A stretch of 55,328 nt of DNA, the filler included, from Sphacelaria rigidula (Eukaryota), in the NCBI GenBank assembly GCA_964200075.2. It is 4 parts of 4 records of this genome, joined end to end, with 100 filler letters (N's around TTAATTAATTAA, not from the genome) between each part and the next. Parts side by side here need not be neighbours in the genome. Positions count along the whole stretch, not along the records: positions 13,861 to 27,617 come from CAXNAA020002685.1; 3 more parts are not named here. One strand, given 5' to 3'. The notes below the pieces were generated by a model. That model did not search any database, had not been told where the DNA came from, and worked only from the letters and a program-made list of their open reading frames with translations. The position numbers and the translations under genes were made by a program. Below, one piece after another: positions 2,909 through 50,914 of this stretch (its first letter is position 1; each line of letters begins with the position of its first letter).

Positions 2909-3931
2909 ATGCATCGCAGCTTTGGTGGCATTTGGTTTGTTGGTTAGGAACGTTCAAACTGTGTGGGCGAGTCCAGCGATGGCGATGCCGAAGAGGGGCA
3001 CATTCCGTTTGGTCAGCGACTATCAGGTGGTGAACGCGCAAGTGGTACAGTCTCCGGGGGTGATGCCAAGCCAAGAAGACATGCGGGAGTTGCTGGGAGC
3101 CCATTGCTTCGGCAAGTTGGACCTACTACAGGGATATTGGCCGATGCCTCTGGCGTCGGAGGCTCAGGGAATCTTCACGATCGTCACGCCTGACGGTTTG
3201 TTTACGCCGGGTGAAGTTCGCTTGGTGAAGGTTCCTACCGTGCCTGTTCGTTCTGTTGCCGTGTACAGCGCGTATGATATCGATGATTCGCTGCCCTCGT
3301 TAGATGCCATTCGTAACGCGCAGCGCAAAACAGTCGGCGACGGTGTTCATTCTTTTCCTACGAGTTTCAGTCAAGCTGCTTTGGCTGACGATGGTTTGTT
3401 CCGCGTGCGTGTTGGTAGTGGTAATGTTTTATGGATTCCGTCGGATGATAAGGCTCTACAAACGCGCTTGATGGTGTGCGCTCACATACGATCGGCTGGT
3501 CACCGTGGGGTGGCGCCGACTCTGTGTCGTCTAAAAAAATACTGTGTGCGGCCTCACATGGATCCCCACGTTCGCGAGTTCGTTCGCCCGTGATTGCATT
3601 GTGTAGACATTCATGCTGGAGTAACTGTACCTCGTCCATATGACGATACTGTGCACGGTACTGCGCCAGGTGAAGTTGTTCACTTTGATTTCCTGTACGT
3701 CGGAAGTAGCGGACCTGAAGGTGCTAATGGTTTGCCTGATGAAGATGGTTTTCGGTACGTTTAGGACATCATGGACTATTTGCCCAATTTCGCTTTCTTG
3801 GAGCCGACCGAGGCTTGCATCGCCGAGCTTACGGCGAAGCACTTGCTCCATTGGTGCAAGACTTTGGGAGTGCCGCATGTGTGGGTTAGTGATACCACCA
3901 CGCACTTCAAGAATCGAGTGATTGCGCAGCT

Positions 3932-13760: not shown

Positions 13761-13860
13761 NNNNNNNNNNNNNNNNNNNNNNNNNNNNNNNNNNNNNNNN
13801 NNNNTTAATTAATTAANNNNNNNNNNNNNNNNNNNNNNNNNNNNNNNNNNNNNNNNNNNN
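13761..13860. other. Artificial contig linker N44-TTAATTAATTAA-N44
   Basis: 100-bp spacer with stop codons in all six frames. Confidence 0.99.
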
Positions 13861-21216: not shown

Positions 21217-24200
21217 CTACAATGTATCATACGCTCGAGGAGAAAGACTAGGCACTCCTAGCTCCAACTTTACGTTCGAATCCTCCTCTGTCTCTTCAAA
21301 GTCTACATGAAATGTGCCCAGGCGTTCACGTACTGTAGCCCGCGAACCACAGAGCCGCCCCGAACTCACACCACCACCGCCGATTCCAATGGCGCTACAA
21401 TGACCTTCGCTGGTCTGACCACTCGAACGGCCAGCCTGCTCGCAACCCTCCCTAGCCCTGTCGCCACTGTGTCTAGCAGAAGGGACTGCCAGCTCTACCT
21501 TCATCACTTCTCCTGCCCTCGCCTCAGACGATATTCCACCAGGCCTTGAAGCTGGGTGTCCTGTCCTGGTACCCGATCTAGGACCGGCGAACGGACTTCG
21601 GCGAGCACCAACACCGTTGTTTGCCACAGAACCCAAGAATCCTGCGCGCTTGCGTTTTGTTCCTCTTTCATCGGCAACGGTTCCTTCACCACTTTTCGTT
21701 GGGCTACGGACGGGGATGCCCCCCCTAGTGTGCAGCTTCACGATGTCGGACACCGCAGCTGTCTTGTGTGCAGAGGTTTCTTGTTGGCCGACCTTTGCCT
21801 CATCAACGGTGTGCTTTTCACGGACAGCCAGTTTGAACCACCCCTCTTCATAGCAAGTGCTGCTCACCTCGTTCACCCTTCCCGCCCTGGCATGAGTGGA
21901 GCAGAACTCCGCCCTCATGCTTTCCACTGCATCAAACACTGGCTTCGTTGAGCAGCCCTCGTATCCGCACTTCTTGGCCACATTCACCATCCCCGCCCTA
22001 GAATGCCTCGAGCAGAACTGCGCCTTCTTGCTTCCCGCTACACCATACGACGGATGCGTGGAGCAGCCCTCGTAGCCGCACTTCTTGTTCACCACATTCA
22101 CCATTTCCGCCATTGCATGCTTGGAGCAGAACTCCGCCTTCTTGCTTCCCGCTACACCGTACGACGGCTTCGTGGAACAGCCCTCGTGGCCGCACTTCTT
22201 GCTTTTCACATCAACCATTGCCGACCTCGCATGCTTGGAGCAGAACTCCGCCTTCTTGCTTCCCGCTACACCATACGACGGCTGCGCGGAGCAGCCCTCG
22301 TAGCCGCACTTCTTGCTTTTCACATCCATCATTCCCTCTCTTGCATGCTTGGAGCAGAACTCCGCCTTCTTGCTTCCCGCTACACCATACGACGGCCTGG
22401 TTGAGCAGCCCTCGTAGCCGCACTTCTTCTCCACCACATTTACCATTTCCGCCGTGGCATGCCGAGAGCAAAACTCCGCCTTCTTGCTTCCCGCTACACC
22501 ATACGACGGATGCGTGGAGCAGCCCTCGTGGCCGCACTTCTTGCTTCTCACATCCACCATCGCCGACCTCGCATGCTTGGAGCAGAACTCCGCCTTCTTG
22601 CTTCCCGCTACACCGTACGACGGCTTCGTGGAACAGTCCTCGTAGCTGCACTTCTTGCTTTTCACATTAACCATCCCCCCTCTCGCATGCTTGGAGCAGA
22701 ACTCGGCCTTCTTGCTTCCCGCTACACCATACGACGGATGCGCGGAGCAGCCCTCGTAGCCGCACTTCTTGCTCACCACATCCACCATCCCCCCTCTTGC
22801 ATGCTTGGAGCAGAACTCCGCCCTCTTGCTTCCCGCTACACCGTACGACGGATGCGTTGAGCAGCCCTCGTAGCCGCACTTCTTAGCCACCACATTTACC
22901 ATTCCCGCCCTCGCATGCTTGGAGCAGAACTCCGCCTTCTTGCTTCCCACTACACCATACGACGGATGCGTGGAACAGCCCTCGTGGCAGCACTTCTTGT
23001 GAAATACATTCACCATTTTCACCCTCGCATGCTTGGAGCAGAACTCCGCCTTCTTGCTCCCCGCTACACCATACGATGGCTGCGTGGAGCAGCCCTCGTA
23101 GCCGCACTTCTTCTCCACCACATTTACCATCCCCGTTATGGCATGCTTGGAGCAGAACTCTGCTTTCTTGCTTCCCGCTACACCGTACGACGGATGCGCG
23201 GAGCAGCCCTCATAGCCGCACTTCTTGGCCACCACATTTACCATCCCCGCCTTCGCATGCTTAGAGCAGAACTCCGCCCTCTTGTTTCCCGCTACACCAT
23301 ACGACGGCTGCGTCAAGCAGCCCTCGTAGCCGCACTTCTTGGCCACCACATTGACCATTACCGCCGTGGCATGCCGAGAGCAAAACTCCGCCTTTTTGCT
23401 TCCCGCTACACCGTACGACGGATGCGCGGAGCAGCCCTCGTAGCCGCACCTCTTGCTCACCACATCCATCATCCCCCCTCTTGCATGCTTGGAGCAGAAC
23501 TCCGCCCTCTTGCTTCCCGCTACACCGTACGACGGATGCGTTGAGCAGCCCTCATAGCCGCACTTCTTGGCCACCACATTTACCATTTCCGCCCTCGCAT
23601 GCTTGGAGCAGAACTCCGCCCTCTTGCTCCCTGCTACACCATACGACGGATGCGTGGAGCAGCCCTCGTAGCCGCACTTCTTGTCCACCACATTCACCAT
23701 TCCCGCCATAGCATGCCGAGAGCAAAACTCCGCCTTCTTGCTTCCCGCTACACCATACGACGACGTCGTTGAACAGCCCTCGTAGCCGCACTTCTTGGTT
23801 TTCACATCTATCATCCCCGTTCTGGCATGCTTGGAGCAGAACTCCGCCTTCTTGCTTCCCGCTACACCATACGACGGATGCGTGGAGCAGCCCTCGTGGC
23901 AGCACTTCTTGTCCACCACATTCACCATTCCCGCTCTGGCATGCCGGGAGCAAAACTCCGCTTTTTTGCTTCCCGCTACACCATACGACGGATACGTTGA
24001 GCAGCCCTCGTGGACGCACTTCTTGTGCACTACATTTACCATCCCCGCACTGGCATGCTTGGAGCAGAACTCCGCCTTCTTGCTTCCCGCTACACCATAC
24101 GACGACGTCGTTGAGCAGCCCTCGTGGACGCACTTCTTGTGCACTACATTTACCATCCCCGAACTGGCATGCTTGGAGCAGAACTCCGCCTTCTTGCTTC

Positions 24201-24663
24201 CCGCTACACCATACGACGGCTGCGCGGAGCAGCCCTCGTAGCCGCACTTCTTGCTTTTCACATCTATCATCCCCGCCCTGGCATGCTTGGAGCAGAACTC
24301 CACCTTCTTGCTTCCCGCTACATCATACGACGGCTGCTTCGAGCAGCAGCCGTTGAAGCTGCACTTCTTGTGCACCACATTTACCATTCCCGCTCTTGCA
24401 TGCTTGGAGCAGAACCCAGCCTTCTCGTCTCCCGCTACACCGTACGACGGCTTCTTCGAGCAGCCCTCGTCGCCGCACGGTTTGTGCACCACATTCACAA
24501 CTCCCGCCCCGGGGTGCTCGGAGCAGAACTCAGCCAAGTAGCCCTGTAAACGGTGAGATGGCGGATTGGAGCAGTCCTCGTTGATGCGCACTTTCGGGCT
24601 AGGTCGACCAGCGGCTCCTTCGTGTCGTGCTCCTTTGAAAACTAACTGCTGACGGTAGCACAA
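21217..24663 (-). CDS. EsV-1-7 family cysteine-rich repeat protein with ~24 tandem 38-aa C-x4-C-x16-C-x2-H-x12 repeats
   Basis: Uninterrupted 1148-codon ORF; consensus CGYEGCSTHPSYGVAGSKKAEFCSKHARAGMVNVVAKK matches the EsV-1-7 motif spacing. The ORF-track start is TTG; the true start may be a spliced ATG-CAG mini-exon at 24777-24782 (GT at 24776, CAG acceptor at 24649, in frame). Confidence 0.93.
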   Translation of the reverse strand: MCYRQQLVFKGARHEGAAGRPSPKVRINEDCSNPPSHRLQGYLAEFCSEHPGAGVVNVVHKPCGDEGCSKKPSYGVAGDEKAGFCSKHARAGMVNVVHKKCSFNGCCSKQPSYDVAGSKKVEFCSKHARAGMIDVKSKKCGYEGCSAQPSYGVAGSKKAEFCSKHASSGMVNVVHKKCVHEGCSTTSSYGVAGSKKAEFCSKHASAGMVNVVHKKCVHEGCSTYPSYGVAGSKKAEFCSRHARAGMVNVVDKKCCHEGCSTHPSYGVAGSKKAEFCSKHARTGMIDVKTKKCGYEGCSTTSSYGVAGSKKAEFCSRHAMAGMVNVVDKKCGYEGCSTHPSYGVAGSKRAEFCSKHARAEMVNVVAKKCGYEGCSTHPSYGVAGSKRAEFCSKHARGGMMDVVSKRCGYEGCSAHPSYGVAGSKKAEFCSRHATAVMVNVVAKKCGYEGCLTQPSYGVAGNKRAEFCSKHAKAGMVNVVAKKCGYEGCSAHPSYGVAGSKKAEFCSKHAITGMVNVVEKKCGYEGCSTQPSYGVAGSKKAEFCSKHARVKMVNVFHKKCCHEGCSTHPSYGVVGSKKAEFCSKHARAGMVNVVAKKCGYEGCSTHPSYGVAGSKRAEFCSKHARGGMVDVVSKKCGYEGCSAHPSYGVAGSKKAEFCSKHARGGMVNVKSKKCSYEDCSTKPSYGVAGSKKAEFCSKHARSAMVDVRSKKCGHEGCSTHPSYGVAGSKKAEFCSRHATAEMVNVVEKKCGYEGCSTRPSYGVAGSKKAEFCSKHAREGMMDVKSKKCGYEGCSAQPSYGVAGSKKAEFCSKHARSAMVDVKSKKCGHEGCSTKPSYGVAGSKKAEFCSKHAMAEMVNVVNKKCGYEGCSTHPSYGVAGSKKAQFCSRHSRAGMVNVAKKCGYEGCSTKPVFDAVESMRAEFCSTHARAGRVNEVSSTCYEEGWFKLAVREKHTVDEAKVGQQETSAHKTAAVSDIVKLHTRGGIPVRSPTKSGEGTVADERGTKRKRAGFLGSVANNGVGARRSPFAGPRSGTRTGHPASRPGGISSEARAGEVMKVELAVPSARHSGDRAREGCEQAGRSSGQTSEGHCSAIGIGGGGVSSGRLCGSRATVRERLGTFHVDFEETEEDSNVKLELGVPSLSPRAYDTL
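21856..24477 (-). repeat. Coding minisatellite, 114-bp unit x23 (plus one degenerate N-terminal unit)
   Basis: Near-identical units visible at DNA level; only indels are one +3-bp and one -3-bp unit, both frame-preserving. Confidence 0.97.
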
Positions 24664-25819
24664 ATATCAAGACGGCAGAAAATACCCCGTCAGCCACGGG
24701 TAGAAGTGAGTTGAAACGCTTTGCACAAAAAGCGAGGTTGCTATTACGGCACATACTACGGAGAAACAGCTGCTACCTGCATTCAACGCAGACTACGCTC
24801 TGAGTAAGCTGATCCCAACAATCACAACGCTACTCGCAAGATCATTCCAGCGAAGGGAGCGTCTTTTACACAATTGAGGAAGGGATCGGGAGCGGATGAA
24901 GTTCCAGTGTAGTACAATAGCAGGATGACTGCACAAAACATGTCAGGCACAAGACCAAAGCTAAACCATGCTCAAGTCATATCAATGATATCTGACACTC
25001 ATGTATAAAAATACAAAACCCAGGGCTTGTACGTCAGACAGGACGAGCCAGCTAGATATTATTGTGCAAAGTGAAGAGCCAGACAACACCGACAGACTGA
25101 GCGATCGCTATGCAGCATTACATGCGCAATTCACGTGGGTACGCGTTGGAACGGCCGCGTGTGGTGGGGAGGGGCAGCGTTCGCTCAACAGCGCCTGCAA
25201 AATGCACGGGTCGTATATGCCTTGTGAGAAGGGCCACGGCGATGTTGAACTCTTGGACGGGACGACTCGAAAACAGACGTGTATCTAATGTGCCGCACGT
25301 GCTTTTGCGGTGGCTCTGTAAGCCTCTACACAATATCAGCTGCTTATCTGTGTTGCAAACTCCGCGATAACGATGGCGATACAAAACAAGGTTTGTATAG
25401 AAATCGGCATCCAAGTCACACCGGCAAGGATGTGGTGAAACGTTATGACCGCATCAGCTTTGGCAAGACCTATAACCGTTGAGCGAAAACCGACCCAGGT
25501 GATTCTGCGCTATCCGCATCACTCTGCGGCCTCTGTGAACGTTTCGGCAGTTCTCGATTTGTGCGACGATTGCGTGTGTTCCTTGCAAGATTTGTGTTTC
25601 TTCCCAGAATATTGGAAGACTTACCACTGCCGTGGAGACCAGAACCGACACAGAGATTATACAGTGAATTTGGAACAAAGAATGTTACAGCGGCAAGGTC
25701 CGCTGTCATCGTTTCGATGCACGGTCTACATGGCATCATATGCTACGACAGCGCCGAAATACACTGCAGGAACACGGTTCTTCATCGCTACCTGCAGGCA
25801 AAGGTTTCATCCGTCGCAC

Positions 25820-26330
25820 AGCTCATGAGCTAGCTCATCTGCGCTCGATCTGTAGCTCGCTTGTAGTCAAACATGTACATGCGAGCTACGTCCGATAGCT
25901 CAACCAAGGTAGACATGCGCTGATGAGCTACAGGGTGGAAGCTCATCCAGGACGGACGCGAGTAGCTCATGTACCTCTCATGGCTTACCCAGGGCACACA
26001 TGCGCGGGTGACGTACGTCCGGTAGCTCATCTAGAGCAATTATGCGTAGCGCACCTAGCTCTTATAGCTCATCGAGGTCAAACATACGTAGCTCATGTAG
26101 CTCTCACCGGTCATCCAGGACGAACACGCGTAGCTCATGCATCTCTCATAGCTCACCGAGGGTGAATATAAGCTGGTGAGCAACGGGTTGGTACCTCACC
26201 TACGGCAAACATGCGTGGCTCATTCAGCTCTCATAGCTCACCCAGGGCGAATATGAGCTGATGAGCTACGAGTTGGTTGCTTTTCCTGGGCAAACATACG
26301 GAGCTCATGTTGCTCTCATAGCTCACTAGG
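25820..26330. repeat. AGCT-rich ~42-bp-period array
   Basis: Units such as TAGCTCATCGAGGTCAAACATACGTAGCTCATGTAGCTCTCA; related arrays at 32730-32950 and 37550-37830. Confidence 0.85.
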
Positions 26331-27617: not shown

Positions 27618-27717
27618 NNNNNNNNNNNNNNNNNNNNNNNNNNNNNNNNNNNNNNNNNNNNTTAATTAATTAANNNNNNNNNNNNNNNNNNNNNNNNNNN
27701 NNNNNNNNNNNNNNNNN
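27618..27717. other. Artificial contig linker
   Basis: N44-TTAATTAATTAA-N44. Confidence 0.99.
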
Positions 27718-41474: not shown

Positions 41475-41574
41475 NNNNNNNNNNNNNNNNNNNNNNNNNN
41501 NNNNNNNNNNNNNNNNNNTTAATTAATTAANNNNNNNNNNNNNNNNNNNNNNNNNNNNNNNNNNNNNNNNNNNN
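41475..41574. other. Artificial contig linker
   Basis: N44-TTAATTAATTAA-N44. Confidence 0.99.
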
Positions 41575-49920: not shown

Positions 49921-50047
49921 CTCATCGCAGCGGTCAACGGGTACGCGCTCGGCGGGGGTTGTGAGCTCGCGATGATGTGCGATATTATCCTGGCGGGGGA
50001 AAAGGCCACATTCGTGCAGCCCGAGATCAAGGTCGGAGTTATTCCCG
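49921..50047 (+). CDS. ECHS1: Enoyl-CoA hydratase exon with both catalytic glutamates
   Basis: [50 protein letters not shown]. Confidence 0.96.
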
Positions 50048-50453
50048 GTGAGAACTTCCATGCCCTAGACGTGAGTGGAAGCAAGTTGTGGAGATGTTTT
50101 GTTGGTGTGATGATTGGTCACGGCGACGCCGAGTGTTGTACTGCGGCTTGCGCTTCTGGCGTCGATTGCTGTGTCCCTAATGTGTTCTCGTGGGCGTTCA
50201 ACATATTCTTCCTCTCGCTTGGTTCTGAGGGAAAGGTTGAGAATATTAGAAACCAGCCGAAGGCGCGTGCGTGTTTTTTTCTTCGTTTTCAAGGGATCGT
50301 TTATAACTCCATGAAACCCCAATATAAGATTCATGTGGTATCCCTTCCCTATTTCTCACACCGTGGTATATCTTCCCGTATTATTTCCCCCCGTTTTGTC
50401 GATGTTTCCCAACCCATTTGTTTTACTGCTTTTACAACACACAAAACAAAAAG

Positions 50454-50558
50454 GCTGGGGAGGTACCCAACGGCTGACTCGAACAATCGGAAAATCGAAG
50501 GCGATGGAAATGATTCTCACCGGGAACGAAATGGATGCACACCAAGCGGAAAAGGATG
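50454..50558 (+). CDS. ECHS1: Enoyl-CoA hydratase exon
   Basis: AAG|(G)[39 protein letters not shown]; phases consistent. Confidence 0.95.
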
Positions 50559-50914
50559 GTGAGGTGCTGCAATCACAGTGCTGGACTATCCAGAGATTAT
50601 GATTTGTCAATGTTTCGGGTGCGGGGCGGGGGGGACGGCGAGGATGGGCTTCGACTTTGAGTTCAGGGCTTCTCCCGAGATAGGAATAATGTTACGCGAC
50701 AAACATTAATCCACTAACATTGGTTACTGAACGATGTGCGCCGTAGTGAGGGTATGGGCATGCTGCGCATTTTGATGCGCTTGTCAACTCCCCATGTGTT
50801 GCAGTCGGTTGTAATGGTAGTCGGCTCTTTTTCCATGGACGCGCGGGCATAGACGTGGCGAGTGAGGATGCCCAGCAGGTCACCGGCTTTTTGTCATTGT
50901 TTGCTCAACTTCAG

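Follow-up and report, generated by a model that had tools for sequence, protein, structure and literature searches.

Does a brown-algal gene that carries a long tandem array of one small cysteine- and histidine-containing repeat encode a nucleic-acid-binding protein, and do a few variable residues in each repeat determine what that protein binds? This question is raised by a locus of Sphacelaria rigidula (assembly GCA_964200075.2, record CAXNAA020002685.1) that lies in a window of 55,328 nucleotides, i.e., the whole stretch of DNA analysed here, which consists of four parts of the genome joined by filler. A first-pass annotation of the window had described an array of EsV-1-7 repeats with a constant scaffold and few hypervariable residues, and had likened it to the recognition arrays of transcription activator-like effectors (TALEs) and of PRDM9. 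We found that the array exists as described and that, among members of the known EsV-1-7 family, it is unusually long. The explanation that we favour, and hold to be somewhat better than an even bet, is that it belongs to a nuclear, zinc-dependent, multivalent nucleic-acid binder, in which positions 9 and 28-30 of the repeat unit are the likeliest tuning residues and positions 35 and 36 act mainly as linker.

The EsV-1-7 array and its C-terminal tail

The array is encoded on the minus strand in an open reading frame (ORF) of 1148 codons plus stop whose frame is unbroken (Table 1). This is the longest ORF of the window by more than fourfold, the runner-up having 266 codons. Tandem Repeats Finder (TRF) reported 23.4 copies of a 114-bp period at 21864-24535 (83% matches, score 3375), and the encoded protein matched the Pfam family PF19114 (EsV_1_7_cys) with 1197 bits, against a curated cut-off of 25, in 24 stretches. 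Anchoring on the pattern C-x4-C...C-x2-H resolved 23 EsV-1-7 units, all of 38 amino acids (aa) except unit 2 (39 aa) and unit 22 (37 aa), and the 24th Pfam stretch is a degenerate leading unit ahead of these canonical ones. The unit count, the outer limits of the array, the two exceptional lengths and the family assignment given by the first-pass annotation were thus all reproduced.

The protein scaffold is as constant as had been proposed. The canonical spacing C-x4-C-x16-C-x2-H is found in 22 units, with one extra residue in unit 2, and every one of the 23 units carries C1, C6, F22, C23, S24 and H26, such that all 92 codons for the putative metal ligands (C1, C6, C23 and H26 in each unit) are intact. 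Positions 11-21 show between zero and five exceptions each among the 23 units. At a net charge of +75 and a pI of 9.3 the array is strongly basic; 22 of its 23 units are net positive, and successive units are connected by a linker of the form x-x-K-K in which the K-K pair is conserved. A Pfam scan of the protein revealed no KRAB-like or other domain beside PF19114 and a marginal match to Phe_ZIP (29.9 bits, without a separate stretch), which was taken as spurious.

The array is followed by a 212-aa tail. A word-index search with the tail that was limited to proteins of 631-2009 aa returned no orthologue; an exhaustive search among 1.84 billion sequences then gave 33 representatives at E≤0.001, including seven at E≤1e-30. 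In these relatives the tail is always C-terminal and preceded by 0 to about 7 units, and all ten that were looked up are unnamed proteins of Sphacelaria rigidula. The tail is conserved up to its last residues, where the terminal SPRAYDTL and stop match the end of one paralogue (P0052). In 20 aligned tails, R68 of the basic motif GTKRKRA is invariant, with K67, K69 and R70 conserved in at least 90%, and the motif MKVEL has an invariant E121 preceded by K119 and V120, likewise conserved in at least 90%. The motif NVKLELGV is also conserved in the tail alignment. We take KRKR to be a possible nuclear-localisation signal, and MKVEL and NVKLELGV presumably fit the SUMOylation consensus ψ-K-x-E, which is common in transcriptional regulators. 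A search of the Atlas with the algal tail gave no usable match.

Table 1 Features of the array-bearing exon (positions in the window) and of the C-terminal domain that follows EsV-1-7 arrays in giant-virus and metagenome loci (L001 to L004, positions in each locus).
Feature	Position	Strand	Evidence
ORF, most likely a large last exon; no ATG ahead of the array; stop at 21217-21219	21217-24663	-	
23 tandem units, each C-x4-C-x16-C-x2-H	21856-24477	-	TRF, Pfam, Cys/His anchoring
Degenerate leading unit (C31...P62), without the C-x4-C knuckle	24478-24573	-	Pfam
Possible 3' splice site, cag/cag	24645-24650	-	Contig of run X5 (guessed to be RNA)
212-aa C-terminal tail, common to a paralogue family	21220-21855	-	Sequence search
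GTKRKRA, conserved basic motif	21643-21663	-	Aligned tails
MKVEL, conserved motif	21490-21504	-	Aligned tails
NVKLELGV, second conserved ψ-K-x-E-like motif, near the C-terminus	21253-21276	-	Aligned tails
Viral C-terminal domain, L001	3805-4332		
Viral C-terminal domain, L002	3504-4034		
Viral C-terminal domain, L003	2805-3344		
Viral C-terminal domain, L004	3258-3767		

Variable positions and selection on the units

Entropy among the units was highest at position 36 (2.46 bits) and position 9 (2.14), followed by positions 29 (1.93), 28 (1.71), 35 (1.47) and 30 (1.45), in agreement with the earlier remark that positions 28-30 and 35 vary as well. Positions 2, 3, 8 and 25, which had gone unmentioned, reached 1.0-1.3 bits. 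Change is therefore concentrated, as the first-pass annotation had it, but over about ten positions and not over two or three. The residues that it listed for position 9 are exact (H10, Q5, K4, T2, Y1 and R1 across the 23 units); those listed for position 36 are correct in content, but in the register that starts at C1 they belong to units 1-21 and not to units 2-22.

Positions 33, 35 and 36 were correlated with one another (p=0.0065 and 0.0125, uncorrected, with 78 pairs tested), and two subtypes of unit, VNVVx and xDVKS, could be distinguished from them. Positions 9 and 36 were uncorrelated, with mutual-information p values of 0.27 within a unit and 0.45 between neighbouring units. At position 9 none of the 14 inferred replacements led to an acidic or hydrophobic residue, and a residue-class test gave p=0.0024 with classes that were chosen after seeing the data. 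A class test for position 36 was invalid, as Ala does occur there, and a test of whether replacements keep to the residues already observed was discarded as circular. The avoidance of acidic residues at position 9 would fit a residue that faces a polyanion, and it would equally fit nearness to a negatively charged metal site.

The same positions stand out elsewhere in the family. Most of the 50 homologues compared use a 38-aa spacing more often than any other, and in the 18 of them with at least seven canonical units the best mean ranks of within-array entropy, out of 38, were those of positions 35 (6.1), 36 (8.3) and 9 (8.3). These three were the top positions in the seven most homogeneous arrays, and positions 36 and 9 were the most variable in 37 units of paralogues. 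Position 9 was occupied by K11, R7, H5, Q5, S3 and six others in the paralogue units, and by R34, Q32, I17, H15, L11 and further residues in 155 units of other arrays, where D was absent and E occurred four times. This family-wide variability of positions 9, 35 and 36 goes beyond the first-pass annotation, and the published family logo or tables may already show it. Searches for a further array were made with two queries: P0002 retrieved only a 30%-identical five-unit locus from the metagenome collection and nothing from the viral collection, and P0010 retrieved four viral loci whose units were too few and too diverged for an independent replicate of the codon tests on DNA.

Selection on the codons was assessed in four ways, i.e., by pairwise comparison, parsimony counts, site-wise likelihood and a null derived from the data themselves. 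The units have a mean pairwise DNA identity of 0.839 (range 0.68-0.97) with no higher-order period among them, and their pairwise synonymous diversity (piS) is 0.27 overall, 0.21 in positions 10-26 and 0.43 in positions 27-36. At these values the statement of the first-pass annotation that the scaffold is nearly invariant even in DNA does not hold; only some scaffold codons are fixed. The tree of the units carries 77.8 synonymous changes on 24.4 synonymous sites. Among 18 fourfold sites, five had no change and four had 7-10 (mean 2.8, variance 11.1); this overdispersion, together with the doubled piS in positions 27-36, could be due to gene conversion that acted in patches, or to nucleotide-level selection.

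The pairwise Nei-Gojobori method gave a global ratio of nonsynonymous to synonymous diversity (piN/piS) of 0.48. Per-codon piN over global piS was 1.69 at position 9, 1.38 at position 29, 1.79 at position 35, 2.16 at position 36 and about 1.0 at positions 28 and 30, and measured against the regional piS of 0.43 (positions 27-36) the values of positions 35 and 36 drop to about 1.1-1.35. Parsimony on a FastTree tree of the units counted 14 replacements and one silent change at position 9 (ratio of nonsynonymous to synonymous rates, omega, 1.69; Poisson p=0.043), and 13 replacements and two silent changes at position 36 (omega 1.62, p=0.065). Neither p value survives correction for 38 codons, and a within-site binomial test gave p=0.38 for position 9 and 0.55 for position 36.

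Site-wise likelihood was computed under the GY94 codon model with a fixed tree and one global synonymous rate. Global omega was 0.32, so that the values across methods span 0.32-0.48. Omega was 0 at C1, C6, F22, C23, S24 and H26 and 0.08-0.3 over most of the scaffold, and it was 1.2-1.4, not significantly different from neutrality, at positions 36, 3 and 30 (1.34 at position 36 on the full tree). Position 9 had an omega of 3.68 (p=0.0002; Bonferroni 0.008). With trees built without the variable codons, omega was 5.4-6.4 at position 9 and 2.0-5.2 at position 36. The likelihood estimates are thus strongly tree-dependent, a behaviour expected if units exchanged segments.

The three nucleotides of codon 9 changed 6, 3 and 5 times and those of codon 36 changed 3, 5 and 3 times, against 0-10 times at the fourfold sites. 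When compared with a negative-binomial or resampling null drawn from the fourfold sites, codon 9 gave p=0.17 on the full tree and p=0.015-0.027 on the tree free of variable codons, which is biased against variable codons. Single-site heterozygosity reached 0.68 and 0.66 in codon 36 and 0.50 in codon 9, with a maximum of 0.73 and a mean of 0.25 at the fourfold sites. Given these results, we conclude that the scaffold is under strong purifying selection and that the variable codons change at a roughly neutral rate; codon 9 alone may exceed that rate, though not robustly. The excess of amino acid change over the neutral rate that the first-pass annotation required at the variable codons appeared at codon 9 in some of the tests, whereas the other codons were about neutral.

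The units were also compared across genes. The best match of a unit within its own array averaged 32.9 of 38 residues and the best match among the 37 paralogue units 31.9 of 38, and five of the 22 canonical units were closer to a paralogue unit than to any unit of their own array. Likeness within the array is therefore about the same as likeness across genes, which indicates that the scaffold characterises the whole subfamily and is maintained by protein-level selection, not by homogenisation of the array. PRDM9 and TALE units are almost identical in DNA except at their contact codons. The PRDM9-like mode of evolution that had been suggested is not borne out here, as the units are old and synonymously diverged without array-specific homogenisation, and the excess at codon 9 depends on the test.

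Predicted modules and their possible ligands

Structures were predicted with AlphaFold for six units (20 alignment rows; pLDDT 71.6, pTM 0.30) and for two units in a shifted register (40 rows; pLDDT 73.4, pTM 0.48). Both models show a small module that is rich in beta structure, its strands lying at unit positions 12-14, 22 and 31-33, and neither contains a helix of four or more residues. In the shifted model the leading M31-V34 is disordered, whereas a strand is formed by the equivalent residues of the following unit, so strand 31-33 would belong to its own unit and x35-x36-K37-K38 would be the linker to the next Cys knuckle. Position 9 is located three residues after the second Cys, and positions 28-30 follow the C-x2-H. 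A pairing of position 36 of one unit with position 9 of the next across the knuckle hairpin was considered but gained no support: in the two-unit model residues 31-33 pair within the unit, and the two positions do not covary between neighbours (p=0.45).

No entry of the PDB resembled either model at E≤0.001 in Foldseek, the wide fold search VIA had a best Z of 2.0 for the six-unit model and nothing at Z≥2 for the two-unit model, and a sequence search of the PDB had 0 matches; from these null results one can conclude neither that the fold is new nor that a known fold is absent. With no resembling structure and middling models, our description of the fold and of the metal site is thus drawn from the ligand pattern only.

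In the literature consulted, the EsV-1-7 domain is either called "a protein of unknown function" or considered as a potential "novel class of zinc finger", and zinc binding by the motif is put forward as a proposal. The same literature describes a nuclear gene family of brown algae that expands in tandem and by lineage, with 2018 proteins in 31 genomes and 234-335 genes in some brown algae. It also describes IMM (IMMEDIATE UPRIGHT) of Ectocarpus as a developmental regulator. In line with the first-pass annotation, no recognition code for the repeat was found in the literature that was searched, nor was a function for it.

The array shares its 38-aa period and its C-x4-C-x16-C-x2-H pattern with IMM and with EsV-1 gene 7. 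It differs in the number of units, 23 as compared with 5 in the published description of IMM and with at most 15 canonical units in each of the 50 homologues. It also differs in layout, with its own 212-aa tail at the C-terminus, whereas the unique domain of IMM is reported to be N-terminal. As far as can be judged without the N-terminus, and from the description of IMM alone, the protein is probably not an IMM orthologue. Its tail family is so far known only from Sphacelaria rigidula, judged by the ten members that were looked up.

Arrays from giant viruses (IMG/VR L002-L004 and JGI L001) contain the same repeat, with between 5 and 12 stretches matched by Pfam, and then a C-terminal module. 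In four of the five loci that were fetched from giant viruses or metagenomes, the array is joined to a single conserved domain at the C-terminus, about 170 aa long (Table 1). This domain is not related to the algal tail (hhalign probability 0.05%). It has invariant residues D51, E64, D66, E67, H70 and R98-x-N100-P101-D102, within the motifs E-x-D-E..H and RWNPD, and searches of Pfam, NCBIfam, PHROGs and the PDB (by sequence and by profile) provided no name for it. The Atlas placed the domain in clusters of Nucleocytoviricota with a weak lead to DUF559 (score 0.84), and its identity as a nuclease could not be confirmed.

On the explanation that we favour, 23 Cys3His modules, each presumably with one zinc, would be joined by the x-x-K-K linkers and followed by the lineage-specific tail with KRKR and the two K-x-E motifs. 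The protein would be nuclear, and its string of basic zinc modules would bind a polyanion multivalently, most likely DNA or RNA. Position 9, which lies in the loop after the Cys knuckle and is polar or basic in every unit of this array, and the variable 28-30 loop would be the likeliest to tune what is bound. Positions 35 and 36 would mainly be flexible linker. In general the variable residues have the look of exposed sites under weak constraint. The charge of the array (+75) makes nucleic-acid binding plausible on circumstantial grounds. Two fusions point towards DNA, i.e., that of the giant-virus arrays to their C-terminal domain and that of a Tc1/mariner transposase of Ectocarpus, which is reported to have acquired an N-terminal EsV-1-7 domain (PMC12477816).

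Several points weigh against this explanation. Both nucleic-acid binding and zinc binding are predictions from the sequence, the models are of middling confidence and resemble no solved structure, and the meanings given to the KRKR and K-x-E motifs are tentative. The N-terminus is out of view and may carry a signal peptide or another domain. In addition, position 9 shows constrained diversity and not free drift, and given its likelihood omegas on the full tree, and still more on the trees without variable codons (where position 36 also rose), it may be under diversifying selection.

The array might instead be a scaffold for proteins or other ligands, a string of zinc beads like those of LIM, B-box or PHD proteins that recruits partners or binds the sulphated or carboxylated polysaccharides of the alga, with variable residues that tune the choice of partner or are unconstrained. 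We consider this unlikely, at roughly one chance in a handful. The unseen N-terminus would allow secretion, and the published account of IMM leaves room for such a function; a Cys3His site with an invariant His is, however, more usual in intracellular zinc sites than in secreted disulphide repeats, and the conserved KRKR of the tail, as we read it, suggests the nucleus. The only Foldseek rows obtained (E 1.5-10, non-significant) were PHD-C5HCH, LIM and ArfGAP fingers, several of which bind proteins or histone tails, whereas so high a charge, combined with the conserved K-K of the linker, is a feature more typical of proteins that bind polyanions, and the fusion to a transposase also argues for nucleic acid.

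Nucleic-acid binding of a stricter kind is what the first-pass annotation had in mind, namely a modular and programmable reader in which every unit contacts one or a few bases through positions 9, 35/36 and 28-30, which is under diversifying selection, and which possibly targets transposons or integrated virus. We regard it as quite unlikely. The C2H2 arrays of PRDM9 and KRAB proteins likewise consist of small zinc modules repeated in tandem within a single exon, with a scaffold that varies much less than a few of the positions. Unlike those, the protein has no match to zf-C2H2, KRAB, SET or SSXRD and its models lack helices. Its units share 84% of their DNA sequence, as against nearly 100% in PRDM9, and an omega robustly above 1 is not seen save perhaps at one codon. 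With TALE, PPR and PUF proteins the array shares the idea of a constant scaffold with few variable residues per repeat, and its unit length of 38 aa is close to the 33-35 aa of the TALE repeat. The units of these three are helical. By contrast, the Cys3His units of the array are predicted to be beta-rich and metal-dependent, and they have no variable pair made up of two neighbouring residues; 27 residues separate positions 9 and 36, which are uncorrelated, and variation extends over about ten positions.

For such a reader speak the likelihood omegas of 3.7-6.4 at position 9, the recurrence of the same three most variable positions in the 18 other arrays and in the paralogues, and the richness of position 9 in R, Q, H and K with D and E nearly or wholly absent. 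The independence of positions 9 and 36 is as expected of free code positions, and the fusions to a transposase and to the conserved viral domain with its DUF559 lead are consistent with it. The excess at codon 9, however, disappears with counting (p=0.043 uncorrected; binomial 0.38) and with the null that allows for rate spread (p=0.17), and a piS of 0.27 is unlike what near-identical TALE and PRDM9 units would show. Position 36 is not significant on the full tree and lies in the linker according to the models, and the correlation of positions 33, 35 and 36 in two subtypes leaves fewer independent states. None of the Pfam matches of the protein is an effector domain of known repressor type, and binding by the array is itself a prediction.

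The exon, its surroundings and their significance

The ORF is most likely the main or last exon of a nuclear brown-algal gene. A contig of run X5, which was guessed to be RNA, fits the window from 24647 downwards; beyond that point, which coincides with a cag/cag site, it carries 28 unmatched letters. This is weakly suggestive of splicing. Two DNA runs extend across the site in the upstream direction. Contigs of X5 and X6, both guessed to be RNA runs, cover the 5' end of the exon, and with their RNA status a guess, the flank left uncovered in them carries no evidential weight. All read contigs were compared over the flank 24364-25930, outside most of the array. The 28 loose letters of X5 are absent from the window, even as 11-12-mers, and a half-unit regular expression run over the 11 kb upstream of the array found nothing convincing as an upstream exon. 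The upstream exon may lie outside the window, or the X5 contig may be chimeric. Pairs of 44-N runs with 12 bases between them occur three times in the window, at 13761-13860, 27618-27717 and 41475-41574 with a constant spacing of 13857 bases; they do not resemble assembly gaps and are in keeping with filler between the parts. The pair at 27618-27717 is about 3 kb upstream of the gene.

Long ORFs are few in the window, which has the appearance of ordinary nuclear DNA of a eukaryote and not of a gene-dense viral insert. An ORF at 2922-3593 (+) has a match to Integrase_H2C2 (24.6 bits, cut-off 25.5) and is probably the remnant of a retrotransposon, and one at 49972-50562 (+), which over its first 27 residues resembles enoyl-CoA hydratase (ECH_1, 23 bits, under the cut-off), is probably one exon of a host gene. 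On the strand opposite the array, at 22003-24549 (+), several long ORFs of up to 209 aa have a 38-aa periodicity of their own; we took them to be by-products of the G+C-rich repeat and not genes. Just upstream of the gene, at 25795-25930, the summed contig depth is about 52,000 in run X1 and about 16,800 in run X3, as compared with about 50-70 in adjacent bins, which marks a very high-copy repeat, and tandem repeats of 42 bp and 85 bp (TRF) lie beside it at 25940-26326. Run X3, which comes from another study, differs from the window at 11 sites of the 1.5-kb flank (24702-25664), nine of them absent from X1, and therefore at least two haplotypes or strains of this locus are present in public data.

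That the gene is a decaying or functionless product of runaway repeat and family expansion, possibly carried with mobile elements, is very improbable: the gene belongs to a large family that is specific to its lineage (33 tail representatives, with 2018 EsV-1-7 proteins counted in the published survey of 31 genomes), a retrotransposon integrase fragment and a very high-copy repeat share the window, and no start codon or first exon was found there, but the frame of 1148 codons is unbroken, omega is 0.32-0.48, the 92 ligand codons are intact, the tail is conserved and, as a weak hint, guessed-RNA contigs cover the 5' end of the exon, one of them stopping at the splice-like site.

Few gene families have expanded as much in brown algae as EsV-1-7, for which published counts reach 335 genes in a genome, and the family includes a developmental regulator. 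The 23 paralogous copies of the module in one frame suffice to separate its constrained core from its free positions, and the same free positions 9, 35 and 36 recur in unrelated arrays, which names the residues to mutate. There is a slim chance that the EsV-1-7 arrays of algae and giant viruses are an unrecognised class of modular nucleic-acid readers, in which position 9 sets the specificity of a module and positions 35/36 and 28-30 help. If so, the targets of long arrays would be specific sequences of matching length, and Sphacelaria would possess its own repertoire of readers, particular to the lineage, on a common nuclear effector tail. Unit-wise binding of nucleic acid would make the repeat a new programmable scaffold; if it does not hold, the exposed surface would still have been marked for a module for which no solved structure was found.

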